From Myxococcota bacterium (lineage in GTDB: Bacteria > Myxococcota_A > UBA9160 > JAFDDA01), in NCBI GenBank assembly GCA_965228475.1, contig OZ245817.1:3904001-3968000 (forward strand): a stretch of DNA of 64,000 nucleotides. The letters are read 5' to 3'. This document shows positions 1 through 18,292 of this stretch, piece after piece; the stretch's first letter is position 1, and each line of letters starts with the position of its first letter. The translations under genes were made by a program, and so were the position numbers. The notes under the pieces were generated by a model that did no database searches, was not told the DNA's origin, and saw only the letters and a list, made by a program, of their open reading frames with translations.

Positions 1-4
1 CTGG

Positions 5-409: not shown

Positions 410-693
410 CGGGCGCTCGGCCCCGGCGAGCCGAAGCGCCGAGCGGCGCGCTCACGGGCCTTCGCGGCCTCGACTTCCCGGTTGCGCGGTGCGGCTTCGG
501 TGACGAGGGAATCGAGCAGCTCGTGCGCCACCTCGGACACCGAGGCGATGGCCTTCTCGAAGGCGGCCTGGTTCGCCCGGGAGGGCCTGTTGAACCCGCT
601 GAGCTTGCGGACGAACTGGAGCGATGCGGCGTGGATCTCGTCCTCGGTGGCCGGCGGATCGAAGTTGTAGAGCGTCTTGATGTTGCGGCACAT
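406..693 (-). CDS. DUF2277 family protein
   Basis: MCRNIKTLYNFDPPATEDEIHAASLQFVRKLSG signature. Confidence 0.9.
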   Translation of the reverse strand: MCRNIKTLYNFDPPATEDEIHAASLQFVRKLSGFNRPSRANQAAFEKAIASVSEVAHELLDSLVTEAAPRNREVEAAKARERAARRFGSPGPSAR

Positions 694-721
694 GGGGGCA
701 CCTCGCGTGGCTTCGGCGATT

Positions 722-1456
722 CTACCGCTGGAGGATCAGGCACGTGTAGCCGTACTCGTCGCCGAAGGTCTCGTAGATCTCCCGTTCGAGCCGGCTCGCG
801 GCGTAGATCTCGCGCTCGCCGTGCCGGGCGACGGCGTCGCGCAGCGAGGCCTCGAGGCCCGCGTAGTACGCGTGCCAGTCGCTCGAAGGCAGGCGGAACG
901 AGCCGAGCTGGTCGTAGCCGACGCTTCGCGCAAGGTCGAAGCGGGTGGCTTCGTCGCGCATGTCCGGGTACTCCGCCGCGAAGAACCGGCGCGCCCGCTC
1001 GCTCGGCTCCTCGACGAACCACACGAGCTCGGTCGCCACGAGGCAGCCGCCGGGCCGCAGGAGGGGCCGCCACCGCCGCAGCGCGTTCTCGAAGCCGATC
1101 GAGTACGCGCTGCCCTCGGCCCACAGCAGATCGAACCCCGTGCCGAAGGAATCGACGTCCGCCATGTCGGCGGCGAGCGTCGTGATGCGGCTGGCCAGGC
1201 CGCGCGCCTCGGCCTGCGCCCGAAGCGTCTCGAGGAACGGCGGGTGGAGGTCGACGGCGGTGACGTGGGCGCCGGTCTCCTCGGCCAGGACGAGCGTCGA
1301 CCCTCCGGTGCCACAGCCCAGGTCGAGCACGCGCTCGATGCCAAGCGAGTCCGGCAACGAACGAAGCGCGCGCCGCGTGGTCTCGACGCTCCCCGGGCCC
1401 TGCCGCGGAGTGCTCTCGTACAGCTCGAAGAAGAGCGCCAGTTCGTCGGGCTTCAC
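722..1456 (-). CDS. Class I SAM-dependent methyltransferase
   Basis: VLDLGCGTG motif I, RQGPGS N-terminal motif; GTG start overlaps upstream stop (GTGA). Confidence 0.88.
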   Translation of the reverse strand: MKPDELALFFELYESTPRQGPGSVETTRRALRSLPDSLGIERVLDLGCGTGGSTLVLAEETGAHVTAVDLHPPFLETLRAQAEARGLASRITTLAADMADVDSFGTGFDLLWAEGSAYSIGFENALRRWRPLLRPGGCLVATELVWFVEEPSERARRFFAAEYPDMRDEATRFDLARSVGYDQLGSFRLPSSDWHAYYAGLEASLRDAVARHGEREIYAASRLEREIYETFGDEYGYTCLILQR

Positions 1457-1836
1457 GGCTTCCCCCTCAGGAGGCCGGAGCGGGCGGCGAGGCAGGCCAC
1501 ACCACAGGCCGCCGCCGCGACGATCAGCAACCGGGAGAGCGACCCATGGAACGTGTAGAGCGGGTCCGAGGACAGCGCGAAGTGGAGCACGGCATGAACG
1601 ATCAGGAAGAAAGCGACCCCCAGCCGCGTCGCGTTTCGGACGCCCTCCTTCGGCGCGTGGCTCATCCACAGGATCGCGAAGAAGAGCGGCACGTGGAGCC
1701 CGACGAACCACTGCGACGCGGCGTCGTCCGGCAGGCTCTTCAGCAAGGGCATCAACCGCCACTCCGAATGCGTGACCGCATCGAGCTCGTGCGTGAAGAG
1801 GCAGGCGAGGCCGAGGTAGTAGAGTGCGATCGCCAC
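1453..1836 (-). CDS. DUF6713-like membrane protein
   Basis: FTHELDAV..EWRL motif, four hydrophobic segments. Confidence 0.75.
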   Translation of the reverse strand: MAIALYYLGLACLFTHELDAVTHSEWRLMPLLKSLPDDAASQWFVGLHVPLFFAILWMSHAPKEGVRNATRLGVAFFLIVHAVLHFALSSDPLYTFHGSLSRLLIVAAAACGVACLAARSGLLRGKP

Positions 1837-1888
1837 GATGCGAACCCCCTGACGGGACCGGCCCTTGGTGGCGGCGCCGGGTGCGGCT

Positions 1889-2299
1889 TCACCGCTTCGT
1901 GTCGAGGACGCGAACGAGATGGCGGAACAGGCCCTTCGAATACCAGACCGATTTCACGCGGGCGAAGGCATCGAGCGCGGGGTCGTGCTCCTCCGGGATC
2001 TCCTGCTTCGGCAGGAAGACGCCCCGGCACTTGGTGCAGCGCAGCACCGAGAGCCCACCCACCTCGCCGGAGACCAGCGTGTCCGCCCGGCACTGGGGGC
2101 ACGCTGCGCAAGGCTCCGAGAGCTCCTTGAAGCCGAGGGCCGGAGCCTGGCCACCGGCGGAACGCGCCTGGGCCGAGCGGAACGCCGTCATCTCGCCTTC
2201 GTCGAACCAGATCCCCTCGCAGGACTCGCACTGGTCGAGGTAGACGCCGAGCGCCCGCACGGGCTTCAGGTGGTGGTCGGAGCAGGAAGGGCAGTCCAT
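1889..2299 (-). CDS. Double zinc-ribbon (zf-TFIIB-like) protein
   Basis: CPSC...DQCESCEGIWFDEGE and CPQC...CTKCRGVFL. Confidence 0.8.
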   Translation of the reverse strand: MDCPSCSDHHLKPVRALGVYLDQCESCEGIWFDEGEMTAFRSAQARSAGGQAPALGFKELSEPCAACPQCRADTLVSGEVGGLSVLRCTKCRGVFLPKQEIPEEHDPALDAFARVKSVWYSKGLFRHLVRVLDTKR

Positions 2300-2324
2300 C
2301 GGGTCGAAACTACCTGGCGATGCG

Positions 2325-2425
2325 GGCCTTCGGCAAAGCTCCGAGCGCTGCCTCTCAGCGCTGGCCCCGCCGTGCCCGCTGCAAAATCCTACCACGCTGA
2401 TCTGAACCCGAGTACAGGGCGCCCG
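2325..2425 (-). repeat. Degenerate attC remnant (type A)
   Basis: ggccttcggc..gagcgctgcctctcagcgctg..aaaatcctaccacgc aligns by eye with the attC at 8628-8761; cores lost. Confidence 0.65.
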
Positions 2426-2453
2426 CCCTTTGCCTCGCCGCCCTGCCCGCGCG

Positions 2454-2666
2454 CTAGCGGGGCTGGAGCGGCGCTGCGGACGACGCGTGGGAGGTCAGGC
2501 AGTACCGGCCGAGGGTCGCGGCCGTGGTGACGCTGCCGACCGCTGCGAACACCGCCAGGAGCGCGATCGCCGCCGCGCGCATCGGCCACGGGAGCCGGCG
2601 GGGCCGCGCGGTGAACGAGCTCGGGTACTCGACGATCCCGACCGGGTTGACGCGAGGAAGTTCCAT
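2454..2666 (-). CDS. Small hypothetical membrane protein
   Basis: 70-aa ORF with one hydrophobic segment, fills the gap between same-strand genes. Confidence 0.45.
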   Translation of the reverse strand: MELPRVNPVGIVEYPSSFTARPRRLPWPMRAAAIALLAVFAAVGSVTTAATLGRYCLTSHASSAAPLQPR

Positions 2667-2736
2667 GGCAGTTGGATGCCCGAGGCCACGGCTCCGTTTC
2701 GCGGCGTCGAGCGGCCGGGGAACACGCGCTCGCCCT

Positions 2737-3207
2737 TCAGGGGCTCTCTTCAGTACGCGCGAGGGCGAGCCGCTCGTCGACCACCGCGGCGAATCCGGGG
2801 TCGAAGGCACCGCGCTGCCGCGTCCACCAGGACCGCGTGGCCGGCATCAGGAAGGCCTGGTCGATGTCCGAGAGGTACTTCTCGCCCATGAACGAATCCA
2901 CCTCACGGGCCAGGTAGCCGAGGTGGATCCGGTTGAAGAAGGCGAAGCACAGCATCCCGAAGTGTTCGCGATCGTCCTCGGTCATCTCATCGGGGGACTG
3001 CATCGCGCGGCGCCAAACCCGGTAGAGCTCCGGGTTGGTCTGCACCTGCTCGAAGATCCCCCGGATCCCGGCCACGTAGTTCTCGTGCAGCGTGAAGCGC
3101 ACCACGTGGCTGTTCTGACGGATCTGCACGGCCAGATAGACCAGCGACCCGATCACGCCGATCGCACCGGCCAGCTCGGCGAGGGCCCCCACTGCATCCC
3201 AGTTCAT
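2737..3207 (-). CDS. Hypothetical protein with N-terminal TM helix (MNWDAVGALAE...SLVYLAVQIRQN type)
   Basis: Recognisable conserved N-terminus; ATG lies 7 nt after a TGGTAGGAT motif. Confidence 0.8.
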   Translation of the reverse strand: MNWDAVGALAELAGAIGVIGSLVYLAVQIRQNSHVVRFTLHENYVAGIRGIFEQVQTNPELYRVWRRAMQSPDEMTEDDREHFGMLCFAFFNRIHLGYLAREVDSFMGEKYLSDIDQAFLMPATRSWWTRQRGAFDPGFAAVVDERLALARTEESP

Positions 3208-3244
3208 GCGGAGGATCCTACCACGGCGTTTCGGGCGACCGGCG

Positions 3245-3622
3245 TCAGGCGGGGGCCGAGAAGCACAGGATGTACCCGTCCGGGTCCTCGACATAGAAGT
3301 CGCGGCGGCCCCAGGGCCGGACCTCGACGCGGCGCAGGATCCGCGCGCCTCGCCCGACGAACTCGTCGCACAGCGCGTCGACGCCGGTTGTGTCGAAGTA
3401 GACGTCGAGATGCTCGTGCTCCCTCCGATGCTCCCGGTCGGCGGTGAGCTTCCGCGCCTGCTTCAGATGGACCGTCCCGCCCTCTCGCGTCACGCTCGCG
3501 TAGAACTCTTCGTAGACGAAATCCACCGAGAACCCGAGCACATCCTCGTAGAAGCGCAGCGATCGGCCGAGGTCATCGACGAGGAGCTGGGCTGCCGCGG
3601 TAGTGATCCTCGGATCAGACAT
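3245..3622 (-). CDS. VOC/glyoxalase family protein
   Basis: VDDLGRSLRFYEDVLGF ... PWGRRDFYVEDPDGY. Confidence 0.92.
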   Translation of the reverse strand: MSDPRITTAAAQLLVDDLGRSLRFYEDVLGFSVDFVYEEFYASVTREGGTVHLKQARKLTADREHRREHEHLDVYFDTTGVDALCDEFVGRGARILRRVEVRPWGRRDFYVEDPDGYILCFSAPA

Positions 3623-3648
3623 CTGGCATCGACTCCGTCAGAGCAACG

Positions 3649-4386
3649 CTAACTCGCGCCACGGTAGACCGAGATCTCCACCGCATCTGGCAGATCGCTG
3701 TACTCGATGCGGGCGGTGCGGTGCTCGGAATCGTAGCGCCCGCAGGTGCGGACGTACTCGAGGTACGGCTCGGCGCCGAACATCTCGCCGACGTTGTCGG
3801 CCACCACGATGCTCCCCTCGCGCAGGAGCCCGCGCTCCTCGAGGAGCCGGAGGTCCTTCTCGTAGAGATCCTTCCAGTGGTCGAGGAAGACGAGATCGAA
3901 GGTGCCCTCGAGCGTTCCGATGACCTTCGACGAGGACCCTTCGAGGATCTCGACCCGGCCGGCGTATCCCGCGTAGGCGACGTTCGCGCGAGAAGCACGG
4001 ACCGAATCCGCGTTCACCTCGATCGAAGTGAGCCGGCCCTCCGGCCCGAGCTCGCCGGCGATCATGATTGCGGAGTAGCCGCAGTACGCCCCGAGCTCGA
4101 GCACCCGCGCGTTCGCCGGAAGGCGCCCGATCAGCTCCGCCATGAGCGGCCCCTTCTCCGGCCCGACATTCATGAGGAACCGCCGCTCACGAGCGAACCG
4201 ATCCATCGCCCGCAGCACGCCCTCCGGGTCGCCCTCCTCCGCGTTCTCCTCGACGAACCGGCGAACCTGCTCGACCCGCGGCGGCGCGCCGGTCACGAGA
4301 TCCGCCACGAACTCATATGCGCGGCGGGCCGTCCACGGGAGGGCTTTCGGGGAAAGGAAACGGGCGAGGTTCAGAAGCTGTGCCAT
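3649..4386 (-). CDS. Catechol O-methyltransferase-like protein
   Basis: LMNVGPEKG, VLELGAYCGYS, FLDHWKDLY, VVADNV motifs. Confidence 0.92.
   Translation of the reverse strand: MAQLLNLARFLSPKALPWTARRAYEFVADLVTGAPPRVEQVRRFVEENAEEGDPEGVLRAMDRFARERRFLMNVGPEKGPLMAELIGRLPANARVLELGAYCGYSAIMIAGELGPEGRLTSIEVNADSVRASRANVAYAGYAGRVEILEGSSSKVIGTLEGTFDLVFLDHWKDLYEKDLRLLEERGLLREGSIVVADNVGEMFGAEPYLEYVRTCGRYDSEHRTARIEYSDLPDAVEISVYRGAS
4357..4382. repeat. 26-bp direct repeat, copy 1 (within 5' end of the O-methyltransferase gene)
   Basis: gaaacgggcgaggttcagaagctgtg; 25/26 identical to 5986-6011. Confidence 0.85.
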
Positions 4387-4551
4387 GGGTGCACCTCGCT
4401 GGCTGCAAGAGCGCGGTCGGGTCAGGAAGACACGGAAACCCTACCACGACACGCAGGATCCAAGTCGACGTCGCCCGCTGTTGCATTCCTCGCCGGCCAC
4501 CTTCGGAAGAGGGCGTCTTCCCGGGAGCTTCGTGTGATAGTTTGATCAACC

Positions 4552-5949
4552 GTGCGGCACCTCATCGCAAGCCTCGTGTGCCTCTTCCTCGTACCCGACC
4601 TCGGGCAGAACAGGCCCGTGTGGCCCTCAGCCGAAGCGGCCCCGGCATCGACTCCGAACGCTCGTGAGGCTCCCGAGGTATTGGAGCTCCGAGCCGGCGT
4701 AGACGCCGGCGACCCCTCTGCAATGTTGAAGCTCGCGCTGCATCTACTGAAGGGGAACCCATCGCAGCAGGCCGAGGGATTCTCTCTTCTCGAAGCCGCA
4801 GCGCAATCTGGATTGGCGCCGGCCCAGCTTCTGCTGGGAGAGCTGCACATCCTGGGGCGTGCGCCGAGCGCGGAGCCCGAGCAGGCGTTCCGCTGGATGC
4901 GAAGGGCCGCCGATCAGGGCCTCGTCGAGGCCGAGTTCCAGATGGGCCAGATGTACTACCAGGGCTTCGGAACCTCGCAGGACCGCGCCGCCTCGGTCGA
5001 GTGGTATCGGAAGGCCGCCGCGCGCGGCCATGCTGGAGCGACGAATGCTCTCGGCGTGCTCCTATCCACCGACGAGGTATTCATCAAGGATCGGACAGAG
5101 GCCGCACGCTTGTACAGAGTCGCGGCCGAGTCCGGGGATGCCGTCGGCCAGTTCAACCTGGCGAAGCGGCTCGCCGACGGCGACGGCGTGAAGAAGGACC
5201 CTGCGCGCGCCACCTACTGGTTTCACCAGGCGGCTCAGCGGGGCCATGTCGCCGCCCAGTACGACCTGGGCCTCCGCTACCTCGACGGGATTGGAACGAC
5301 CCAAGATGTCGAGGAGGGTCGGTCTTGGCTCGAGCGCGCCGGCGACGCGGGCTTCGGGCCGGCGTATCGCGCCATCGCATACCGACTTCTGGCGTCACCA
5401 GCGACCCGCGCGAGCGCGGCCGAGTGGTTCGAACGCGGGGCCGAAGCGGGCGACGCACACTCGCAGATCGCCGTCGTCGAAGCACGGATCCGGGGAGAGA
5501 TCGAGCCTGAAGACCCCGCCGACGATCTACGGAAGATCTTGGCCCTTGCCGATGCGGGCGACCTCTCCGCCATGATCACGATGTCCATGGCCCACTACAA
5601 AGGCTACGGCGTCACCCAGGACCCACTGTCAGCATTCTCTTGGGCGCAGCGCGCAGCACTCGGTGGCCTCGCCCGCGGAGAGTCGATGCTTGGGATGTAC
5701 TACGGGAAGGGAATTGGCGTCCAAGCCGATCCGAAGAAGGCAGTCGAGTGGTACCGCAAGGCCGCTGCCCAGGGGGAGCCCAACGCCCAGTACTCACTTG
5801 GGGTTCACCACCTTCTCGGGAAACACGTCCGCAAGAACCCCAAGAGAGGCATCGCGTTGCTGGAGGCGGCAGCGAAGCAAGGCAACGCCGAGGCGGCCGC
5901 GGTGCTGGAGAAGCTGAGGCGGCGCCAGCGCTCCGGCGCCGCACGCTAA
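4552..5949 (+). CDS. Sel1-like repeat (SLR) exported protein
   Basis: Signal-like N-terminus and ~10 repeats of AQ..LG..Y..G.G..QD...A..WYRKAA. Confidence 0.93.
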   Translation: MRHLIASLVCLFLVPDLGQNRPVWPSAEAAPASTPNAREAPEVLELRAGVDAGDPSAMLKLALHLLKGNPSQQAEGFSLLEAAAQSGLAPAQLLLGELHILGRAPSAEPEQAFRWMRRAADQGLVEAEFQMGQMYYQGFGTSQDRAASVEWYRKAAARGHAGATNALGVLLSTDEVFIKDRTEAARLYRVAAESGDAVGQFNLAKRLADGDGVKKDPARATYWFHQAAQRGHVAAQYDLGLRYLDGIGTTQDVEEGRSWLERAGDAGFGPAYRAIAYRLLASPATRASAAEWFERGAEAGDAHSQIAVVEARIRGEIEPEDPADDLRKILALADAGDLSAMITMSMAHYKGYGVTQDPLSAFSWAQRAALGGLARGESMLGMYYGKGIGVQADPKKAVEWYRKAAAQGEPNAQYSLGVHHLLGKHVRKNPKRGIALLEAAAKQGNAEAAAVLEKLRRRQRSGAAR

Positions 5950-5985
5950 GGCCGGTTCTCCGCTAGCAGAGTCGGAACTTCAAGA

Positions 5986-6011
5986 GAAACGGGCGAGGTT
6001 CAGGAGCTGTG
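5986..6011. repeat. 26-bp direct repeat, copy 2
   Basis: gaaacgggcgaggttcaggagctgtg. Confidence 0.85.
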
Positions 6012-6042
6012 TCGAGGCTTCACGCTCTGCCTTCGGAGCAGG

Positions 6043-6504
6043 TTAGACACCGTAGTAGCCCAGGAGGAGACCGTTGAGCCAGCGGCCGAACAGGAAGCCC
6101 ACGGCCACCAAGCCGAGATTGAGCAACGCGTAGCTCGCGCGCGCCCACCCGGGCGGCACGGCGCGGGCCGATACCAGGGTCGCGAGGGCGAAGAAGAACC
6201 ATGCCCCGGTGCAGACGAGAAGCGGCTTCCCGAGAAGAAACATCAGAGGCAGGTCGTGGAAGACCAGACCAGAGGAGAGAAAGGTGATCACGACGGCCAG
6301 CGGCCGATTCTCGCGGCCGCCGAGCGTCCGATAGAGACGATGAAGCACGAATCCGGCGAGAGGACTCCACGTGCGCCAGAAGTTGTGGAACCCCGGCTCG
6401 AACCAACAGTCGACGAACATGCGCCGGATCACCCGAAGAGGAGGCATCGAGGCGGGGTAGCCCCGAGCCTCGAGGTATTCCTGGTAGGACGGCGCGGAGG
6501 TCAT
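6043..6504 (-). CDS. Membrane protein, MBOAT acyltransferase-like fragment
   Basis: FHNFWRTWSP and TFLSSGLVFHD resemble MBOAT motifs; several TM segments. Confidence 0.6.
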   Translation of the reverse strand: MTSAPSYQEYLEARGYPASMPPLRVIRRMFVDCWFEPGFHNFWRTWSPLAGFVLHRLYRTLGGRENRPLAVVITFLSSGLVFHDLPLMFLLGKPLLVCTGAWFFFALATLVSARAVPPGWARASYALLNLGLVAVGFLFGRWLNGLLLGYYGV

Positions 6505-6530
6505 CGAGAACTCGCTCGGCTCGGCGGCAG

Positions 6531-6893
6531 CTAGTGAGCGGCCGAGACTTCGTCCAGATAGAAGACGTTCCCGTCCGGATCGGCGAAGAGCGCCAGGTAC
6601 CCGCCCCACGGCTGACGGGTAGGCGGCATCGGAAAGGCAACGCCGGCCGACGAGAGACGTTCGAACTCGGCATCGAGGTCAGCGACCGCGAACCCGACGC
6701 CGGTGTGGCGACCCACCCAATCCGCCTGCTCCGCCCCCGCCACCGCCAGCCCCAGGTGCACGGGCCCCGCAGAAAGAGAGGCGTAACCGTGCCCCGTATC
6801 CGAGTGGGCAACCCGCAGGCCGAGCTTCGACTCGTAGAACCGGAGCGCCCGGTCGAGATCCGAGACGAAGACGTTGACGTAGGCGATCTTCAT
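6531..6893 (-). CDS. VOC/glyoxalase family protein
   Basis: VNVFVSDLDRALRFY ... QPWGGYLALFADPDGN. Confidence 0.92.
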   Translation of the reverse strand: MKIAYVNVFVSDLDRALRFYESKLGLRVAHSDTGHGYASLSAGPVHLGLAVAGAEQADWVGRHTGVGFAVADLDAEFERLSSAGVAFPMPPTRQPWGGYLALFADPDGNVFYLDEVSAAH

Positions 6894-6897
6894 GTCC

Positions 6898-7007
6898 GGC
6901 TCCTGTGATCTGCACCACCAGCGCCGCGCCACTTTGTCCAACGCCAGAACTCTACCACCCGGCGTTCGGGCACGACGCCTGGCCCCTGCTGATAGCCATT
7001 GCTAGGC
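6898..7007 (-). repeat. Degenerate attC (type A)
   Basis: acgccagaactctaccac...ctgctgatagccattgctaggc matches the corresponding half of the 10282-10415 site. Confidence 0.75.
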
Positions 7008-7307
7008 AGCCGGACTCTCCGGCTCCGAACCCGCGAAACGACGAACCTGGCGAAGAACCCAGCGACCATCGGAAATGAGGTAGCGACCCAAGAAGAAGAG
7101 CAAGGCGCACTTCACCGCGTTGAATGCGAGGGACGCAAGCATCTGGGAGAGTGGAGTGACCCCAGGGTGACTCTCCGGAGATGCCACAGCGGCATAGGCG
7201 ATGCTGGGCAACCACGCGACGGCGTTGACCGCAGAAAACGCAGCCTGGAGCCAGGCGTAGAGGCCCAGGACTCGTATCGCGACCTCGAGATAGTCATTGC
7301 GAGTCAA
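7002..7307 (-). CDS. Cassette-encoded small membrane protein
   Basis: TTG start, two hydrophobic segments, stop inside attC R'' core. Confidence 0.65.
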   Translation of the reverse strand: MTRNDYLEVAIRVLGLYAWLQAAFSAVNAVAWLPSIAYAAVASPESHPGVTPLSQMLASLAFNAVKCALLFFLGRYLISDGRWVLRQVRRFAGSEPESPAA

Positions 7308-7339
7308 TGGATCTTCCCGCCGGGCCGTCTTCGGCTTGC

Positions 7340-7400
7340 TGCAATCCACCGCTGCGCCACCGAGACGCGCCAACAGAATGGTATCACGGCGCAACGGAAC
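7340..7400 (-). repeat. Highly eroded attC remnant
   Basis: ccgagacgcgccaacagaatggtatcacgg resembles ccgagaccgacgccagaatcctaccacgc of intact sites. Confidence 0.45.
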
Positions 7401-7410
7401 CCATGCGATC

Positions 7411-7935
7411 TCAGCGACGGAGCCTGAAGTGCCCCTCCCGGAGGCCCGACTCTGCGGCACGCAGCACCTCCTCTTCGCTTCGACCAAGTGTGCTGATGAC
7501 ATGCGACTCGTACTCGCCCAGCTCCGCGAAGGCGGCGACCGTCGGCCGCACTCGAGCACTCGCACCGACCCCCTGGCGCTCTCGAACCCGACGTAGCGCC
7601 TCTGCCTCAGGGACGCGGAGCACCAGGTATGACGCGTCGATATCAGGGGGTAGCTCCGCCATGACTACGGGGAGAAACCACGGGCCGAAGATGCCGTCCA
7701 GCACGACCAGATACCCACCCTCGAGAAATGCACTTGCCGCCCTCGCGGTCGCGCGGACGATCGTAGTGTTCTGGGCGTGAGATTCGGGCTTCGTTGGCTC
7801 GATGAAATGAGCTGGGAAGCCATAGAACGTGTCGCCAGTGAGATGCAGTCCTTGCGGGTGGGCCTTTGAAATCGATGCGGAGAGTGTCGTCTTGCCGGCG
7901 CCGGGGCAGCCCGACACGATGATGAGGGAAGCCAT
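7411..7935 (-). CDS. P-loop NTPase/kinase (AAA_33-like)
   Basis: IIVSGCPGAGKTT Walker A; VVLDG. Confidence 0.88.
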   Translation of the reverse strand: MASLIIVSGCPGAGKTTLSASISKAHPQGLHLTGDTFYGFPAHFIEPTKPESHAQNTTIVRATARAASAFLEGGYLVVLDGIFGPWFLPVVMAELPPDIDASYLVLRVPEAEALRRVRERQGVGASARVRPTVAAFAELGEYESHVISTLGRSEEEVLRAAESGLREGHFRLRR

Positions 7936-8021
7936 TCGTACCTCGGGTCTGGAGTACGGGTCAGGTCGAGCGAGATGAAGGACCTGGCTTCCTAGTTCAT
8001 TGTCGGCTCTCGGTTCGCTTC

Positions 8022-8099
8022 GTCACCCAAGCGGGAATCCAGAAGTCTACCAAGCAGGAGTGCAGACGCGGTGGTCGTCAGCTGCAACCCTTGTCAGGC
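8022..8099 (-). repeat. Truncated attC (type B, R' half missing)
   Basis: ...ggtcgtcagctgcaacccttgtcaggc matches the end of 13736-13864. Confidence 0.75.
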
Positions 8100-8633
8100 G
8101 GCAGGCCCCTGAGAGCGCGCCTCGACCAGGATCGCGACGAACGCGTATCCGGCCATCAGAAGGAGGAATACCAAATTGAGGAGGTAGGAAAAGAACAGCC
8201 ACGGCGAGAAGAAGCCTGCGACGGTGAGGAACTGAGCGAGAACCAGGGAGATTCCGATGACGTGTACAGCCATGAGCGGCCCCGACCGGCCGATCTGGCG
8301 CTCGCCTCGCAGGTTGACGCGCCAGCGCGCCCGAGAGTGGGCGACGATGATGGCGAGATGATAGGAGCCCAGGAGCAGGCCCGAGACGCGCCATGCGTGC
8401 GTCGGCTCCAAGTGACTCGCACGCGCAAGGTCAGGGACGAAACCAAAGACGACAACCCCCAGGCTGCATCCCAGAAGTGCGATGAGCGCCGGAGCGTCGT
8501 CCGGCTGCCAGGCTCCGTTCTCGCGCCCTCCGAGCACCATGACGACACCGGTGAATCCGGCGAACGCGATGGCGACCTCGGCCAAAGAATGGAGGATGTC
8601 CTGATGCTCCAGAATCCCGCTCCTGCCGCCCAA
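8094..8633 (-). CDS. Cassette-encoded multi-pass membrane protein (start uncertain)
   Basis: LAEVAIAFAGFTGVV motif, ~5 TM segments, stop inside attC core. Confidence 0.8.
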   Translation of the reverse strand: MGGRSGILEHQDILHSLAEVAIAFAGFTGVVMVLGGRENGAWQPDDAPALIALLGCSLGVVVFGFVPDLARASHLEPTHAWRVSGLLLGSYHLAIIVAHSRARWRVNLRGERQIGRSGPLMAVHVIGISLVLAQFLTVAGFFSPWLFFSYLLNLVFLLLMAGYAFVAILVEARSQGPAA

Positions 8634-8761
8634 CGGATCAGGCCTTCAGCAGCGCCGAGGGTGCTGACACTCAGCGCTGCACCACCGTGGCCGATGCCAG
8701 AATCCTACCACGCCGCATTCGAGCCCAAGCCCTTGGCGTCCGCTGCAAGGCATCGTTAGGC
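8628..8761 (-). repeat. attC site (type A, both cores canonical)
   Basis: Minus strand GCCTAAC...TTGCAGCGG...GCTGAAG...GTTGGGC imperfect palindrome. Confidence 0.93.
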
Positions 8762-8780
8762 GGCGGGCGTTGACCACGAA

Positions 8781-9545
8781 TCAACCTTCGATGTACTCCT
8801 CGATGGTTTCCTTGTTCTTTCGAAGTGCTGCCTGGAGTTCTTCGGGCTCAGTTCCCTCGATTCGTCGGTCAAGTTCCTCCGCCACCCCTTCGACGAGCGG
8901 GTTGAACTCAACGATGTTCCAGATCCCGTGTGAAATGTTCGCGCCAAGGACACCTGCGGAGGTGCATGCGACAAGAAAGCCCCAGGAATATGAATACGTT
9001 CCGTACTCGAGCTTCTCGCAGAGTTCCTTCAGATCAAACGCTACCTTCCGCTGGTAGGCCACGTGGCACGCGTACAAGGTCTGAAGACCATTCGACGAAG
9101 CAGCCTCCAGGAACGAGCTGAGAGGCTCGGTCTTCGTGCCCTCGTCGCTCACAGAGCCGACTGGCCGAGACCCTGCCTCTGTCGACAAGCCCTTGATTAG
9201 GGTCTGAGTCTCATCGACCCGCTCCCCAACACGTTCGATCATGCTCGGAAGGGTTTCGACCTTGCGAGTCAGCTCGTCGGAGGCTTCGGACACTCGCTCT
9301 GCCGTTCCGGACAGAAGCCGGGAAGCGCCATCGAGCGTGGCAACATTCTGGGAGAAAGAAGTGTTGGAATACATCGAGTAGGCGATCGCCAACAGGGCAA
9401 GAACCAGCGACGTGACAGTCAGTGCGAACGTGATGTAGTCGACGAGTCGCGGCACGGCGCTCCACTCGATAGTGACCAGAGCAATGATGGCTAGTACCAA
9501 GATCGATACGATGTAGAACGCGTGGATCTTGTACTTCGTTTCCAT
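8781..9545 (-). CDS. Cassette-encoded protein with 2 TM helices, coiled coil and C-terminal domain
   Basis: METKYKIHAF start; two hydrophobic helices followed by a heptad-rich region. Confidence 0.8.
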   Translation of the reverse strand: METKYKIHAFYIVSILVLAIIALVTIEWSAVPRLVDYITFALTVTSLVLALLAIAYSMYSNTSFSQNVATLDGASRLLSGTAERVSEASDELTRKVETLPSMIERVGERVDETQTLIKGLSTEAGSRPVGSVSDEGTKTEPLSSFLEAASSNGLQTLYACHVAYQRKVAFDLKELCEKLEYGTYSYSWGFLVACTSAGVLGANISHGIWNIVEFNPLVEGVAEELDRRIEGTEPEELQAALRKNKETIEEYIEG

Positions 9546-9559
9546 CGATGTTCCCTGCC

Positions 9560-9693
9560 GCCTCACGGATCAGGCCGCCAGCGGCGCCGAGGGGGCTGAC
9601 TCTCAGCGCTGAACCACCGCGACCGATGCCGAAATCCTACCACGCCGCATCCGATCAGGAGCCCTTGGCGTCCGCTGTAAGGCCTTGCTAGGC
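9560..9693 (-). repeat. attC site (type A, cores mutated: GCCTAGC / GTGAGGC)
   Basis: High similarity to 8628-8761. Confidence 0.9.
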
Positions 9694-10275
9694 GGCTCCG
9701 CCTGCGAGAGGCTCTCCGCATTGAGAGCACCGTTCATCTTCCAGGGTGGCGCTGGCCGCGCACGCTGGGCAAATCTGCCAGCCGGTCGGAAACGGGAGGC
9801 CGCAGTCACTGCACTCAGTTGCTCCCGTCTCGGCGCTCGTGCCACAAGCGGGGCAGTGATCGAGTTCGGTTCCAGTCTGGGCGGACTCGCCTGGAGGACT
9901 TGGCATTCGCGATTCTTCGTGCGCCTCGACCAAACGTAGAGCAGCCTCGACAGACGACTCCTCGACATAGAGCGCCAGGTTGTAACCGTGACCGGCGCTC
10001 CCTTTTACCGCACCACGAGCGTCAATCGAGGACCCCGGCGGATCGGTGTCGATCTTGCTTGAGATGCCCCTCTCCTGGAGGAATATTGCTTGCTGTTCGA
10101 GCTGCCAGGGACCTCCGTACGAGACGATCTCCAGGTTACTCAGGTACGCGAAACCGGCTGGGCTCGGCGGCGGACTCCAGGGTTCGAGCGTGACATGACA
10201 ATCCGAGCAGGTCTCGACATCAAGCCTGTACTCGATGTGGCACGAGGGGCAGAGTTTCGCGAGTACGAAGTCCAA
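9688..10275 (-). CDS. Zinc-ribbon + DUF2007-like + double zinc-ribbon protein
   Basis: Six CxxC pairs; central FLQERGISS...LYVEESSVEAALRL. Confidence 0.8.
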   Translation of the reverse strand: MDFVLAKLCPSCHIEYRLDVETCSDCHVTLEPWSPPPSPAGFAYLSNLEIVSYGGPWQLEQQAIFLQERGISSKIDTDPPGSSIDARGAVKGSAGHGYNLALYVEESSVEAALRLVEAHEESRMPSPPGESAQTGTELDHCPACGTSAETGATECSDCGLPFPTGWQICPACAASATLEDERCSQCGEPLAGGAA

Positions 10276-10281
10276 GAAGCC

Positions 10282-10415
10282 GCCTAACGGATCAGGCCTT
10301 CAGCAGCGCCGAGGGCGCTGACTCTCAACGCCGCACTACCGAGACCGACGCCAGAATCCTACCACGCAGCATTTTGGGGATGAGCCTTGGCGCCTGCTGA
10401 TAGGCCTTGCTAGGC
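10282..10415 (-). repeat. attC site (type A, GCCTAGC / GTTAGGC)
   Basis: Near-identical to 12497-12630 over ~80 bp. Confidence 0.92.
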
Positions 10416-10419
10416 GGCA

Positions 10420-10888
10420 CTAGTCAATCTTGTTGATCGGGAGGTCGACTCTCGGATCGATGGTCAGGTTGATGATGCCTTCCGCCACCTTCCGAAACCC
10501 TTCAGATGTCTTGCGTAGCTGCGAGGTTTCAAGGACTTCCCTGTCCACCCGCAAACCGCGCTTGGCCTTTGCGCTGCTCTTGGTTCTTAGCGCGCCCTCA
10601 ATATCTGCCGGTGCCCAGATCGAATGGAGCAGCTTGTTTCGCTCCATCTCAGCCTTGGTGATCGCAGTTCGAAGAGACTCGATTTCCTGGATGTACGATT
10701 CGTCGTTGGTGGATTCTTTGAGCACCGAGAGAAGAAATTTCGTTGGAATCTCTGCTGAAACGATTTCGCCGACCGTCGTATCTGCTGACAGTGCTGCTTG
10801 CAGTGGAACAGTGAGACTCAACTCAAGGACCCAACGCCTTGAGGAAATCGTCGTCGAGGTAGTGTTCAAAGAATGTCCTTCGCGCCAA
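10420..10888 (-). pseudogene. Disrupted HEPN-like cassette gene
   Basis: N-terminal piece LARRTFFEHYLDDDFLKALG stops at 10823-10825; another frame continues LELSL...ERNKLLHSIW (Rx4H motif). Confidence 0.6.
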
Positions 10889-10918
10889 CGCAGCCGCCTG
10901 GCTAGCCCACAGGCAGCA

Positions 10919-11773
10919 TCAGATACTGACCTTGTCCGACTTGGATCTATTGCAGTCGAAACATGTGAGTCGGATGTTCTGCTCCTCTGAACTGCCGCCT
11001 TTGGAGATCGGAATCTCGTGATCGAATTCGACTTCGTTGTCTCGCAGGTGCTTGCCACACCGTTGACATGTGTAGTTGTCACGCCGTACGACCCGAATCT
11101 TTGTCTTGAAGGAGATGTATCGACCTGTTCGGCGTAGTTCGGAGGTTTCGGTCATCTGCTCAGCGTTGAATACGGCAGGGCATAGGTGACCAAAGACGTT
11201 GCACGACGCGTCGATGAGCCAACCTGGAATCTCTTCCGGGTAGTCAGCAGCATCGAACTCGTCGATCTCCCGCTGAAAGTGCTCTCTCTGTTCGTCAGTG
11301 ATGGGGCGAAGGTTGCCAACGATCCCTGTCTTGAGGGCCCGCTTCATGTCTTCGTTGACAGCAACCGCAGCCTCGCGCGTCAGATCATCACCGATGTCCC
11401 GGCCAAGACGCTGCATCATTGTGATCTCGCCAGTCGGGTCAGGCTCGTAGTCCCCTGGATTGAAGTCGGCGACGCAATCCTCGAAGTCCTGCCTAGTCTG
11501 ATCATCGAGAGGTTCGCCATGTCCGGCCATGCCGCTGGCGAGACAACCCTTGATGTACTCCAAGTGATCAACTGCATCCTCGCGTGTCTGCGGAAGCAGG
11601 GGAGATTGCTCGACCAGGGGACCGTAGGGACAGTACTTCAGCTCCCAACACGGCTTGCACACACGGTTGGCTCGCTGCTCCCACCACGATGCGAAATCAG
11701 CATCGGACAGCGTGTCCGGGAGCGCGAGTGCTCTTCGAACGGCAGGATGGAGTCGCTGTTCTGCAGACGCCAC
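10919..11773 (-). CDS. HNH endonuclease with Cys-rich N-terminal domain
   Basis: RDNYTCQRC...EFDHEIPISKGG...NIRLTCFDCNRSK. Confidence 0.92.
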   Translation of the reverse strand: MASAEQRLHPAVRRALALPDTLSDADFASWWEQRANRVCKPCWELKYCPYGPLVEQSPLLPQTREDAVDHLEYIKGCLASGMAGHGEPLDDQTRQDFEDCVADFNPGDYEPDPTGEITMMQRLGRDIGDDLTREAAVAVNEDMKRALKTGIVGNLRPITDEQREHFQREIDEFDAADYPEEIPGWLIDASCNVFGHLCPAVFNAEQMTETSELRRTGRYISFKTKIRVVRRDNYTCQRCGKHLRDNEVEFDHEIPISKGGSSEEQNIRLTCFDCNRSKSDKVSI

Positions 11774-11784
11774 GATTCGATGCC

Positions 11785-11915
11785 GCCTAGCGGACTAGGG
11801 GTTTCGCTGCGGCCAACGGCCGCCGAGGTCGCAGCGCCACCCGAGTAACGACGCTAGGATTCTACCAAGTCAGTTGGAGGCTGCGTTGGTCGGCAGCTCT
11901 AACCCCGTGTCATCC
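11785..11915 (-). repeat. attC site (type B, cores mutated: GGATGAC / GCTAGGC)
   Basis: Similar to 13736-13864. Confidence 0.85.
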
Positions 11916-11926
11916 GGCATCGCTCC

Positions 11927-12493
11927 CTACCTACCGCGGCGCTTCTTTCTCGCTGTCTGCTTGCGCCCCCGTTTGTGTTGGCGCTCGTAAAACAGAGTGC
12001 CTGCTTCAAAATCTCGAATGTTGCCAGGCTGGATGTCTACTCGCTTCTTGCGTTCATTGAACTGGAGCTGTGAGCCCCCTGCTCGGATTAACAGAGTCTC
12101 GATCTCTCGCTCATGAGTCTTCTCTGCGACAATGTAGAAGGAGAAGTACTGGAGTTCCGAGGAGTGAGCCTTCTTGCGGGAAGCCAGACGCCTGAACACG
12201 TTGCCGCGGCCAACGTATCGAGCGGAACCCATCGAGTCGTGAGCTACGTAGACGCCGTTTGGTGTGATCCCTTCGCTGGCAACGTCCTTTCTGACATCAT
12301 CGAGCGCATCGAATGGCAGCTTCTCTGCGACAAGAGTGAAGAGTGGCTCGATCTTTCGTGGTCGCCCACGCCCACGGGTGAGCTGACCAGCCTTAACGGA
12401 CCAGTGCGAGTTACTCCAGACGGTGGAGTAGACGGTCTTGGTGGCCTGAGGCTTCGATCGCCGCTTCTTTCGTACTGCCATGCAACCGCTCAT
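11927..12493 (-). CDS. GIY-YIG nuclease family protein
   Basis: GVYVAHD...RYVGRG..FRRL...H...EREIETLLI...N. Confidence 0.8.
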   Translation of the reverse strand: MSGCMAVRKKRRSKPQATKTVYSTVWSNSHWSVKAGQLTRGRGRPRKIEPLFTLVAEKLPFDALDDVRKDVASEGITPNGVYVAHDSMGSARYVGRGNVFRRLASRKKAHSSELQYFSFYIVAEKTHEREIETLLIRAGGSQLQFNERKKRVDIQPGNIRDFEAGTLFYERQHKRGRKQTARKKRRGR

Positions 12494-12496
12494 GCC

Positions 12497-12630
12497 GCCT
12501 ATCGGATCAGGCCTTCAGCAGCGCCGAGGGCGCTGACTCTCAACGCCGCACTACCGAGACCGACGCCAGAATCCTACCACGCTGCCCTTGGACAGAAGCC
12601 CTCGGCGGCTGCTGATAGGCCTTGTTGGGC
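12497..12630 (-). repeat. attC site (type A, GCCCAAC / GATAGGC)
   Basis: Imperfect palindrome near-identical to 10282-10415. Confidence 0.92.
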
Positions 12631-12642
12631 AGCTGCACGGGC

Positions 12643-12912
12643 CTACTCGTCAGAATCCAGCTCCCCGGTCGCAAGAAAGGTGAGCTCGCGATCTGAGAAC
12701 TCGGACTCTTGAAGCAGCCAACGGGCTCGGTGAGCCGACTCCGCACTAACCGAGGGCCGCACCTTTGCGGGAACAGCTGCGACAGATTGGGTGACATAAA
12801 CGGATGAGGAGACTCCGCCCGAGCGGAGCATGCCCTGGACGACCTCGGCAGTACCAATCGAGTCGAACTCTAGAACGAACTCACCATCCTGGATGGAGTC
12901 GCCGTCGCTCAT
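12643..12912 (-). CDS. DUF2007-like (putative signal-transducing) small protein
   Basis: AEVVQGMLRSGGV...VSAESAHRARWLL pattern; fills the cassette exactly. Confidence 0.7.
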   Translation of the reverse strand: MSDGDSIQDGEFVLEFDSIGTAEVVQGMLRSGGVSSSVYVTQSVAAVPAKVRPSVSAESAHRARWLLQESEFSDRELTFLATGELDSDE

Positions 12913-12915
12913 GCC

Positions 12916-13022
12916 GCCTAGCGGATTCGGCGCTCAGCGGCCGCCTCGCCGCAGGCGGAGGCTTGGAGCGCCCTAGGTTGATGCCAGGATTGTACCAGGG
13001 TCGGATGGAAGCCTGGGTAGGC
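12916..13022 (-). repeat. attC site (third sequence type, one arm partly deleted)
   Basis: gcctagcggattcggcgctcagcggccgcct arm present; partner arm reduced to taggcggc. Confidence 0.7.
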
Positions 13023-13027
13023 GGCGC

Positions 13028-13728
13028 CTAGCCTGTCTTCCTGAACTTATACGTATCCCAGGGGGACATGCCGACTCTCGAGCGGACGAACTTTCGAACT
13101 TGGTTGGACGATATAACAGCCAGCCGGAAGACCAGCTCACTGGCGCGCCGATAACGTGTAAGGGTGACGCGGCTTTCCGCAACAACTCGATGCGCGATCT
13201 CTCCGCGAAGAGTGATTAGGTCTTCAAGTCGCGACTGTGCGCGCTCTGCCGACATGTTCTTCCAGCGCCAATTCGACGAGAGCCTCTGGAACCCGACCAT
13301 GTGAAGGAAAAGCTCATCAACCTGTTTGGGCGGGGAGTGTTTAGCCTCCGCACATAGCGATCGAGGACCTGGTCTCGGTACGAGACGAGAACATCACGCC
13401 AGCCATCTTCTGCCAGTGCCCAGACGCGCCGTGGGTCGCTTTCTTTCTGCAGGCCACCGGCACAGAGTGCCAGGATTTTCGGTGCGAACGCTCCTGGGGA
13501 CTCTGCGTGTTCCAGCGTGAAGTCAACAGCATTGACTGCAAGATCTTCGACGAATGCCTCCCAAGACCCGACCAAGAATACGATCGCACTCCGAATCAGA
13601 ATATTGGGCTCAACGAGCGGCGCGTGGGGATCGTCACGTAAGTGTTCGTAGGTCTCGACGAGCGTATCGAGATCTCTCATGCTCGCTCGCAGCGTGCCGA
13701 TATGGGATGGCTCTTCTTGTTCGGTCAA
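13028..13728 (-). pseudogene. HEPN-domain protein split by a -1 frameshift (pseudogene, programmed frameshift or sequencing error)
   Basis: RSAIVFLVGSWEAFVEDL in ORF1; LRGEIAH (Rx4H) in ORF2; frames join at C-CCA-AAC (13324-13330). Confidence 0.75.
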
Positions 13729-13735
13729 CGGCGCC

Positions 13736-13864
13736 GCCTAACGGATCAGGGGTTCAGCTGCGGCCAACGGCCGCCGAGGTCGCAGCAGCACCCGAGTGCA
13801 AAGCCAGAACCTACCACGCAACTGGAAGGCCGCGTTGGCCGTCAGCCGCAACCCCTTGTTAGGC
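13736..13864 (-). repeat. attC site (type B, both cores canonical)
   Basis: Minus strand GCCTAAC...GTTAGGC with long complementary arms. Confidence 0.93.
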
Positions 13865-13873
13865 GGCCCACTC

Positions 13874-14344
13874 TCAGGGGAGCCTAACCCGAACAAAGGC
13901 CGGCTTCTGCGACATTGCATGAAACACGCCGCAGTAATAGCGCCCCGTCTTGCCGTAGTTCGCGACCGCCTCGTCTTGGTTGATGCCACCGGTCCATCTG
14001 TCGCCGGGTTCGAGCCTATGGGGGAGCGGCGGGCCGAACGGAACGTTGCCGACGACGAATCTGGCGCTTGCTCGGTCGAACAACGCATGGAAGATGGACT
14101 TGTAGTGAACGCCTGCCAGGTTCGTAATCGTGGTGGCTTGGCCCCCGTGGTTCGTAACTGAGACAAAGATGAACGTGGCATCGGGGGCGCTTGGAAGGGG
14201 CGGCATCGCCTGCATGTCGGGACTGGCGTAAACCCTGATCTCGGCTCCACGTCGTCGCCACTTGTAGACGTCCCAGCCGAGCACTGCAGTGGCAACGATC
14301 GCGCCCCACCACGCAGCGACGTCTGTAAGGGAGAGAGAATCCAT
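13874..14344 (-). CDS. First-position cassette: N-terminal TM helix plus beta-rich domain, hypothetical
   Basis: VAAWWGAIVATAVLGWDVYKWRR then VSVTNHG. Confidence 0.8.
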   Translation of the reverse strand: MDSLSLTDVAAWWGAIVATAVLGWDVYKWRRRGAEIRVYASPDMQAMPPLPSAPDATFIFVSVTNHGGQATTITNLAGVHYKSIFHALFDRASARFVVGNVPFGPPLPHRLEPGDRWTGGINQDEAVANYGKTGRYYCGVFHAMSQKPAFVRVRLP

Positions 14345-14359
14345 CTGCTCGCTTGGGCC

Positions 14360-14438
14360 GCCTAGCTAGTCTATCGGTCGGCCCCCGAGTATCTCTCGGG
14401 GTCTTGATCGTTCAGTCCGGAGTCTTGGCCGTTCAGTC
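14360..14438 (-). other. attI-like site with two 21-bp direct repeats
   Basis: GCTAGGC core (14360-14366) with no attC partner arm; repeats at 14397-14417 and 14418-14438 (18/21 identical). Confidence 0.6.
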
Positions 14439-14578
14439 TAGGCTCAACCGTGTCGGAAAGGGGAAGCGCTTTTCGTTCGCGAGGCTGGGCGAGCGAAGCT
14501 ACCGGGGCAGCCGGTTGGGCTGCGCGGGGATTCTGCGGGCCAGTGTGTTCGATGATGGGGTCGGCCCTGGCGCTCACG

Positions 14579-15220
14579 CTACGCGTCCGGCAGTCGGAGG
14601 CCCGTACCGCCAAGGCCGCAGTACCCACCGGGGTTCTTGGAGAGGTACTGCTGGTGGTAGTCCTCGGCGTAGTAGAACGCGGGGGCTTCGAGGATCTCGG
14701 TGGTGATGCGGGCGCCGCGGGTCTGGCCGTCGATGACTTTCTGGAAGGCGTCGCGGGTGGCTTCGGCCTGGGTGCGTTGCGCTTCTCCGTGGACGTAGAT
14801 GCCCGAACGGTATTGGGTGCCGGTGTCGTTGCCCTGGCGCATACCTTGGGTCGGGTCGTGGGCTTCCCAGAAGATGCGGAGCATTTCGCGGTAGCTCGTG
14901 GCGCTCGGGTCGAAGACGACGCGGACCACTTCGTTGTGGCCGGTCAGGCCGGAGCAGACTTCTTCGTAGGTGGGGTTCGGGGTGTGGCCGGCGGCGTAGC
15001 CGACCGCCGTGGTGTAGACGCCTTCGGCCTGCCAGAACTTGCGCTCGGCGCCCCAGAAGCAGCCCAGGCCGAACTCGGCGACTTCCATCCCTTCCGGGAA
15101 GGGCGGCGCGAGGGCGGTGCCGAGCACGTGGTGCTTCTCGGGGACGGGCATGGCGGCGCTTCTGCCGGGGAGCGCATCCGCGGCGCTCACCATCTGGGTC
15201 TTGTCTCGGAACAGGCGCAT
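14579..15220 (-). CDS. msrA: Peptide-methionine (S)-S-oxide reductase
   Basis: [25 protein letters not shown] motifs. Confidence 0.97.
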
Positions 15221-15224
15221 CGCC

Positions 15225-15488
15225 CTACCCTCCCGCCGCGGCCTTCACGAAGGTGACGCGGTCGCCGTCCGCCACGGGTGTGCTCATGCCGCGTTTGTGG
15301 TTCACGAGCACGCCGTTCACGGCGACGGCCGCCCGCCGCGAGAGCTCGTCGAACTCGACGCCCTTCTCGCTCAACCGCGCCTCGGTGAGCTTCACGATGT
15401 CCGAGACGCTCACGGCGTGCGGCACCTCGAAGCGCCGCTCGCCGGCGGCCTTGCCCATCTCGTAAGTCAGTTCGACGGTGATCGGCAT
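15225..15488 (-). CDS. MoaD/ThiS family sulfur carrier protein
   Basis: 87 aa, VAVNG, GDRVTF and C-terminal GG. Confidence 0.9.
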
Positions 15489-15490
15489 GG

Positions 15491-17374: not shown

Positions 17375-17429
17375 CTCGGTCCTCCGCTGAAGCCTTCATT
17401 CTATCAGCCCCGGCGGTAGAATCCGGCGC

Positions 17430-18266: not shown

Positions 18267-18292
18267 ACTGCGGCCCGCGCCTGGAGGCCCCG

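Follow-up and report, generated by a model that had tools for sequence, protein, structure and literature searches.

A putative -10 promoter element within the attC sites of a chromosomal integron from a Myxococcota bacterium

In the working model of integrons, cassettes are promoterless and depend on the promoter Pc, their expression fades with distance from attI, and promoters within an array are regarded as exceptions (PMC11014356, PMC11511950, PMC4889954; this and later statements on the literature rest on parts of the papers cited). Here we describe a cassette array in which the attC recombination sites themselves carry a conserved nine-nucleotide box that resembles a -10 promoter element and is directed at the next cassette. 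The array lies in a stretch of 64,000 nucleotides (nt) from a Myxococcota bacterium (assembly GCA_965228475.1, contig OZ245817.1, positions 3,904,001 to 3,968,000 of the forward strand), which as a whole is termed the window. Positions are those of the window unless marked as genome positions. The extended -10 consensus of sigma-70 type is TGnTAnnnT.

Among the closest described systems is a hybrid promoter of Vibrio sp. DAT722 (Michael and Labbate 2010, PMC2945992). It is of sigma-70 type, lies partly inside attC and drives the downstream cassette, and its -35 recurs in other attC sites of that array. Its -10, however, is unique to the downstream cassette and thus to one junction, whereas here a whole -10-only promoter-like element lies within most attC sites of a family, in many genomes. 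Expression far from Pc is also provided by cassette-borne promoters (cmlA, qacE, qnrVC1 and toxin-antitoxin cassettes) and by gene-less cassettes of the Vibrionaceae (PMC8876359, PMC11014356), and oral cassettes devoid of an open reading frame (ORF) likewise place promoters inside an array (PMC6557892). Those promoters sit in the cassette body or in dedicated cassettes, as individual exceptions, and not in attC itself. Group IIC-attC introns carry an outward promoter at the attC position that drives the downstream cassette, but this belongs to the inserted intron (PMC3001079) and there is no intron here. Pc shares direction and task with the attC box; it is single and located at the platform, whereas the box is repeated at each cassette boundary. 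The -10-only promoters of leaderless mRNAs are known from Actinobacteria and Deinococcus-Thermus. They are represented in the present genome by 566 genes with TANNNT placed 6-8 nt before the start codon and no -35, and differ from the attC element, which is positioned about 60 nt before the cassette boundary and would give a leader-bearing transcript. Small ORFs in attC also appear in the literature (among PMC8876359, PMC11014356, PMC2945992, PMC6557892, PMC11511950 and PMC4889954). A conserved promoter inside attC itself was not found in our literature searches, subscription papers and supplements being outside their scope.

Conservation of the box within attC

On the minus strand, from 14480 to about 2300, the window holds the cassette array of a chromosomal integron whose integrase has been lost. 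An attI-like site heads the array, followed by seven intact attC sites and then by remnants (Table 1). The motif-bearing sites are attC sites as judged by their R boxes, a foldable palindrome and a co-oriented array with intI and attI in the genome; they are presumably recombined by IntI. Their ends, R'' resembling GCCGCCTAAC and R' resembling GTTAGGCGGC, are mutually complementary; the inverse core of R'' has the form RYYYAAC, and the consensus of the R' core is GTTRRRY (PMC11014356). The box is located at offset 52-53 in sites of 137-138 nt and is in cassette sense in all cases, pointing at the downstream cassette. The original prediction, made from the letters of the window, placed 11 such motifs, and all 11 are where it put them, on the minus strand, with a match to TGNTANNNT. 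Further minus-strand matches occur at 3215-3223 and 4438-4446, inside the same interval, and at 17398-17406, before a housekeeping gene.

In the window TGNTANNNT is matched 17 times where 8.18 matches are expected (standard deviation 2.62), and none of 100 shuffles attains 17. The genome has 419 matches, and their commonest word, TGGTAGGAT, accounts for 46. In 50-kb bins, those with the complete integron of this genome and the window array contain 46 and 17 matches, respectively, and most others 0-11. When five window attC sites were used as nhmmer queries across the genome the family proved confined to these two places, the window giving nine hits and the integron 37; one site located by its R boxes brings the total to 47. 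Two other detectors were dropped: a first regular expression for attC, far too loose at 885 genome-wide hits, and a generic fold-based search, so strict that it recovered one window site. Hidden Markov models (HMMs) of half-sites, from which the block columns had been removed, recovered eight distinct attC sites in the window, with the motif in 8/8. Over the genome the TAnnnT hexamer is present in 44 of the 47 sites and the exceptions read GTGCCG, CAGGAT and TGCCAT. At the CAGGAT site (genome 4364400-4364545), where T-12 is lost, a separate TGGTATTAT occurs about 100 nt downstream; this may be compensation, in a single case.

Conservation was assessed over 86 distinct attC sites; this genome contributed 46 of them, and related genomes the other 40, at 24 loci. 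The 46 are mostly full-length and include one found via the motif; the two half-remnants of the window were excluded. A tree was built without the nine motif columns and changes were counted per column by Fitch parsimony, with the hexamer numbered -12 to -7. Columns of the upstream flank change 9-25 times. Within the box T-15 changes 9 times, G-14 twice, G-13 once, T-12 and A-11 four times each and T-7 three times, while the three inner positions of the hexamer change 9, 12 and 17 times. The eleven columns that follow the box, T C T G G C G T C G G, show 11, 6, 7, 4, 3, 3, 14, 10, 4, 8 and 12 changes. At least 20 different hexamers occur in the family, all of them TAnnnT, and those seen most often are frequent in the leaderless set of the host as well. 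The counts indicate purifying selection on the positions needed by a -10, namely G-14, T-12, A-11 and T-7, with turnover of the inner positions.

These data alter several details of the original prediction. Its statement that the invariant positions are exactly TGnTAnnnT was a product of searching by that pattern; the columns conserved across the family are nGGTAnnnT and CTGGC, and the supposedly invariant T-15 varies whereas the position left as n at -13 is nearly fixed. The three sequence types, held to be different, are detectably homologous by nhmmer, since searches with type A recover type B sites at 1e-4 to 4e-7 and a search with type C recovers an A-like site at 3e-4. Variability of the terminal loop, taken there as the accepted view, does not hold for sedentary chromosomal integrons, in which attC repeats are near-identical within a species (PMC8876359). 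The statement that every attC carries the motif is correct in the window and too strong for the genome and for related genomes, as follows.

A BLAST search with one attC gave matches in 35 of the 225 genomes of the class. In about 21 of the class genomes the matches are at least 70 nt long, and each starts right at the box and runs to R'. A second sample consisted of 20 array regions from 20 genomes scanned with an HMM of the 3' part that excludes the box, the regions having been located by BLAST with the box included. The scan gave 53 hits at E<=1e-3 (19 genomes), some of which may be non-attC, with TAnnnT in 43, G-14 in 39, TG in 23 and a CTGGC-type box in 45; at E<=0.05 TAnnnT is at the expected place in 65 of 78. 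So of the TG at -15/-14 the G is conserved and the T is not. Ten of the hits at E<=1e-3 have no hexamer: six belong to one subfamily, TGGnnGCCnnCTGGCGGCATACTT, one has GGTGGCAT and three do not look like attC. The subfamily, also found once in this genome, keeps TGG-N8-CTGGC in five of its six members from relatives, and this skeleton has a wider occurrence than the hexamer.

Integrase relatives from other phyla were considered at 80 loci (46-61% identity). The attC sites delimited at two of these (L020, L067) have no conserved TAnnnT, and the feature is therefore lineage-specific; block-like hits at the integrase loci of other phyla lie in coding sequence and are attributed to chance. Two genomes of the same family as our bacterium gave no member of the attC family, which with assemblies 81-89% complete in 260-740 contigs is no proof of absence.

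The host promoter signal and the folding of attC

Across the genome TANNNT is followed by ATG or GTG at spacings of 6, 7 and 8 nt in 272, 180 and 119 of 5403 instances, against approximately 30-50 at other spacings. A start codon was counted if it opens an ORF of at least 80 codons rich in G+C at third positions. The longer TGNTANNNT is at this leaderless spacing in 102 of its 419 matches. Four composition-matched control motifs display no spacing peak at the leaderless distance; a fifth, GTNTANNNT, in which TANNNT is kept, does peak, with 16, 8 and 4 of 252 at spacings 6-8. Changing any of T-12, A-11 or T-7 abolishes the peak (0.9-1.1x as opposed to 4.6x), and the peakless variants are CANNNT, GANNNT, AANNNT, TANNNC/G/A and TG/TC/TTNNNT. 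CATACT, present in the hexamer-less subfamily, was considered as a substitute -10 and is unsupported, CANNNT being among the variants devoid of a leaderless peak.

A logo of the 566 sites outside the arrays, 6-8 nt before starts, has G-14 at 66%, a weak T-15 at 23% and no preference at -13 (C 40%, G 38%). There is no information in the -35 region, and the discriminator is rich in C. Also outside the arrays, 221 of 360 matches to TGNTANNNT have a same-strand gene start within 150 nt downstream, with peaks at 6-8 and 20-39 nt; three control motifs reach 22-27%, and the same sites reach 37% when the opposite strand is read. On this evidence the genome appears to run on -10-only promoters with many leaderless mRNAs, and the attC box matches, in its letters, the -10-only promoter of the host. 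A two-hexamer sigma-70 scan of 2000-15000 called no attC box, and one unrelated site against 1.3 expected, as would be anticipated for -10-only elements.

Examples of the host promoter are found in the window at 3205-3223 (-), 4535-4554 (+) and 17374-17406 (-). In the second, 8 nt separate TGATAGTTT at 4535-4543 from the downstream GTG of a Sel1-repeat gene, which faces against the cassettes. In the third an ordinary chromosomal gene is headed by the same box as attC.

On the bottom strand the box is free of conserved pairing. DNA folds of this strand from 38 attC sites pair each of the nine motif positions in 0-11 sites, and the centroid structures likewise leave the box largely open. The R and L arms do pair, the CAGCTG/CAGCTG arm in 94-95% of cells. 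The bottom strand of the site at 13735-13872 has a fold energy of -36.4 kcal/mol (z -3.5), and for two others z is -1.3 and -0.9, so that fold energy alone is weak there. A column-pair scan of the bottom strand detected no helix of at least four columns and at least 80% pairing that touches the block. Pairing in the folded bottom strand, which had been raised beforehand as a possible cause of the conservation, does not account for it. When RNAalifold was applied to a trimmed alignment of 78 rows, neither strand gave a structure. On the top strand CTGGC of the block pairs with GTCAG, and GGCGT with GCGCC; both pairings depend on invariant columns and G-T pairs. A central hairpin, GCGYTGA-NNN-TCAGCGC, follows the block (e.g. 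10316-10332, -). It has 424 Watson-Crick cells, and on the top strand 51 G-T as against 11 A-C cells, a bias that comes mostly from one column; the G-T excess implies that the hairpin is better paired when formed by the top strand, or by RNA of that strand, than when formed by the recombinogenic bottom strand.

A proposed promoter in attC and the competing explanations

The best available reading, which we hold to be slightly more likely than not and which is incomplete, is that the attC box is a promoter from which transcripts would start into the next cassette. That polymerase fires there, where the transcript begins and how cassette expression is affected are inferred from the features described. 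Most cassette ORFs begin 0-40 nt after R' and this leaves no room for a promoter of their own. In ordinary double-stranded DNA attC would recruit RNA polymerase through the -10, with no need for a -35. The transcript would start some 7 nt beyond the hexamer, which for type B means the G of TCTGGCG, such that the CTGGC box would overlie the start point. It would then cross the 3' half of attC (about 60 nt, including the small hairpin) and 0-40 nt of cassette as a leader. Since attC moves at the 3' end of a cassette, the promoter would be supplied to the downstream neighbour, the first cassette would depend on the platform for its expression, and each cassette would be transcribed regardless of its distance from attI.

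If this is correct then all cassettes of a 40-cassette chromosomal array are transcribed by default and a mobile cassette brings a promoter to its new downstream neighbour. The position effect would be gone and the presumed cost of large arrays altered. It would also explain how integrons function in hosts that use bare -10 promoters and often leaderless mRNAs.

Several observations weigh against the box being a promoter and nothing else. The conservation of G-13 and of TGGC after the hexamer (4, 3, 3 changes) is like that of TA..T and neither is explained by the host logo, hence the conserved block, nGGTAnnnT-nCTGGC in the central region of attC, exceeds a promoter. The T of the TG is among the variable columns, and many relatives read CGGTAGCAT. 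The subfamily that keeps TGG-N8-CTGGC in spite of having no TAnnnT (6/53 hits in relatives, and genome 4376724-4376861) indicates that the block has a second, perhaps primary, role. CTGGC and G-13 have another function, probably tied to the living attC. Were every attC a promoter, some 40 cassettes would be expressed constitutively, which conflicts with the usual picture of an array as a reserve kept at low cost. In addition all sites are one descent family, the arrays of relatives were located by BLAST with the box included and remnants via the motif, which biases the counts. The earlier proposal of a dual-function site, both recombination site and promoter, is thus borne out in part: the box appears to be of the host promoter type, with selected positions that are left unpaired, but TG is not the conserved part, and CTGGC and G-13 go unexplained.

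Could the block be a protein site or a structural feature of attC, such as an accessory contact of the integrase or a site for a host factor that acts in recombination or in the formation of cassettes, with an incidental likeness to a -10? We consider this unlikely, though it has to be taken seriously. TGG-N8-CTGGC would then be the functional unit and the TAnnnT within it either a component of that site or an ancestral state, in keeping with G-13 and TGGC being at least as conserved as TA..T, and with the 5/6 members of the TAnnnT-less subfamily that retain it. GGTA-N6-TGGC is rare outside the arrays, at nine places compared to 40 inside, and the loss of CTGGC at the decayed sites 2386, 3215 and 4438 fits service to living attC only. 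However, the three spacer positions that do not vary are those that the host -10 needs, with the three between them free to vary, and both orientation and position suit a promoter for the next cassette. The bottom strand has no conserved pairing at the block, and we know of no integrase contact in the central part of attC. A further reading, which we judge improbable, is a switchable promoter module. The -10 would fire, while CTGGCG(T/G)CGG, from +1 to about +12, together with TGG 11 nt upstream, would dock a trans-acting factor that gates the array or couples transcription to recombination; after fixation of a cassette the operator would decay and the promoter stay.

Common descent alone, in which any nine nucleotides of young attC copies would look conserved, is improbable to a greater degree. 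There are indeed the 46 copies of TGGTAGGAT in the genome, most type B sites are 80-94% identical over their full length, and types A, B and C are homologous. Yet among the 86 sites the columns beside and inside the hexamer change 9-25 times against 3-4 for TA..T, and the 20 or more hexamers share TA and the final T only. Simple descent with no excess at the key positions, which the original prediction allowed for, is weakened by these counts. Least probable of all, and very doubtful in our view, is a sigma-54 promoter with a closed complex at each attC awaiting an activator. The sigma-54 -24/-12 consensus is TGGCAC-N5-TTGCW. GG (2 and 1 changes) and GC (3 and 3) are the best-conserved columns, 10 nt apart in TGGTAGGATTCTGGC, which is the sigma-54 spacing. 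The genome does employ sigma-54 promoters: TGGCA-N6-TTGC occurs 45 times in the host outside the arrays and never inside, a sharp peak relative to 1-16 at other spacings. But at -14 to -12 the host has TGC (TTGC 45, CTGC 38) and attC has GGC. There is no peak for TGGCA-N6-TGGC (16, with 14-35 at other spacings) or TGGTA-N6-TTGC (1), and C is found at -23 in 45/46 TGGYA-N6-TTGC sequences where attC has T in 82/86. TGGTA-N6-TGGC itself occurs 40 times, 38 of them in the arrays. A sigma-54 site would leave the invariant last T of the hexamer unexplained, and no activator site is evident, each attC having a different cassette upstream.

The window array, its platform and the complete integron

The features of the window are collected in Table 1.

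Table 1. Array start, attC sites, remnants and related boxes in the window
Feature	Position	Strand	Details
attI-like array start	14345..14480	-	homologous to attI region of the complete integron of the genome; no intI adjoining
attC type A, intact	13733..13875	-	box TGGTAGGTT at 13808-13816; predicted transcript start ~13801-13799
attC type C, short 5' arm	12912..13034	-	box TGGTACAAT at 12989-12997
attC type B, intact	12499..12639	-	box TGGTAGGAT at 12571-12579, then TCTGGCGTCGG
attC type A, degenerate R''	11780..11925	-	box TGGTAGAAT at 11859-11867
attC type B, intact	10282..10422	-	box TGGTAGGAT at 10356-10364
attC type B, intact	9563..9697	-	box TGGTAGGAT at 9634-9642
attC type B, last intact site	8632..8764	-	box TGGTAGGAT at 8702-8710
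attC remnant	8012..8102	-	5' half (R'', L'') and box TGGTAGACT at 8044-8052 kept; 3' half gone
attC remnant	7300..7390	-	central and 3'-proximal part alone kept; box TGATACCAT at 7378-7386
attC remnant	6918..7014	-	5' half, box TGGTAGAGT at 6949-6957 and TCTGGCGTTGG
Leaderless-type promoter of host kind	3205..3223	-	TGGTAGGAT (3215-3223), 7 nt, then ATG
Box without attC flanks	4438..4446	-	TGGTAGGGT, 51 nt upstream of ATG of O-methyltransferase gene
Decayed type B attC	2311..2394	-	box TGGTAGGAT at 2386-2394 intact; next 11 nt match 6/11; 3' part recognisable
Control outside array	17398..17406	-	TGATAGAAT, 23 nt before ATG (GGAGG present) of aldehyde:ferredoxin oxidoreductase-like gene

The attC sites decay below 8600. 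The remnants at 8044 and 6949 (nhmmer E 5e-5 and 2e-6; z 3.6 and 4.0) keep the 5' half and the box, the upstream half of the former scoring z 3.6 against type A, while those at 7378 (downstream part against type B, z 3.4) and 2386 (z 2.8) keep the central or 3' part. All have an intact hexamer and the following 11 nt match at 6-10 of 11, which suggests retention of the hexamer, these being sites found by the motif and not an independent count. Survival of the motif where the rest of attC has decayed, as first proposed, is upheld at these four places (flank z 2.8-4.0) and not at 4438 and 3215, which were rejected as attC remnants because their flanks have no significant similarity; they may be ordinary host promoters. 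The CTGGC part is gone at 2386, 3215 and 4438. The decayed stretches contain six cassette-sense motifs in the window (2386-8052) and eight at genome 4351417-4360590, whereas the 360 matches that lie outside the arrays give a genome mean of approximately 0.04 per kb and strand. The remnant at 8012-8102 is 108 nt upstream of the ATG of a P-loop kinase gene and the remnant at 6918-7014 is 55 nt upstream of the ATG of a glyoxalase-family gene. The G+C content is 56-62% at 8000-14000, where attC sites are intact, and 66-70% at 1-7000, where they are decayed, with a genome value of 70.5%; such a gradient is expected if old cassettes have been ameliorated and fixed.

The single intI of the 5.0-Mb genome is at genome 4384365-4385318, 466 kb from the window array, and scores 422.6 bits on TIGR02249 (cut-off 265); there is none within the window. 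An array with 37 attC sites of the family lies downstream of this gene and co-directional with it. In this complete integron (genome 4361900-4385318; loci L001 and L088-L116) intI is oriented like its approximately 40 cassettes, a reverse layout. The co-directional arrangement of intI and cassettes is termed a reverse integron (PMC6557892). Its far end (genome 4351000-4361900) decays as does that of the window array.

Pairwise alignment of the attI regions of the two arrays gives a mean column identity of 71%. Both have the word TAGACTGAAC and the crossover context ...GATAGACTA|GCTAGGC, and the window array is a second integron platform without its integrase. In the attI-like region (14345-14580, -; counterpart L001 1305-1545, -) msrA occupies the place expected for intI. 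Upstream of the array msrA is accompanied by a small ThiS-like ORF and the aldehyde:ferredoxin oxidoreductase-like gene. The word TAGACTGAAC may be the -10 of a platform promoter; it may alternatively be a protein site, since each of the attI regions contains three to five AGACT-like words.

We listed 41 cassettes, in most of which the sense ORF starts 0-40 nt after R'. Most ORFs have no Pfam family and the remainder include HNH proteins, a HEPN-like fragment, zinc ribbons, a P-loop kinase, glyoxalase-family proteins and methyltransferases. Rfam covariance models gave no match at E<=1 in 1-20000, and a scan of 2000-15000 gave nine terminator-like sites against 8.4 expected, which is no signal. 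In the second cassette (13028-13728, -) the HEPN-like ORF is seemingly split into overlapping ORFs at 13216-13728 and 13028-13300, which may reflect a frameshift; its match to RiboL-PSP-HEPN is weak at 24.7 bits, under the cut-off. At genome 4374662-4376861 four tandem cassettes are close copies of one another. In every one TAGGATTCTCGGC stands within the cassette body, some 45 nt ahead of the GTG, and resembles a second copy of the box; one of the four comes after a hexamer-less attC. At 10830-10920 (-) the HNH gene and the next ORF have no attC between them and look like a two-gene cassette, with a short GCCTG...CAGGC hairpin after the HNH stop codon.

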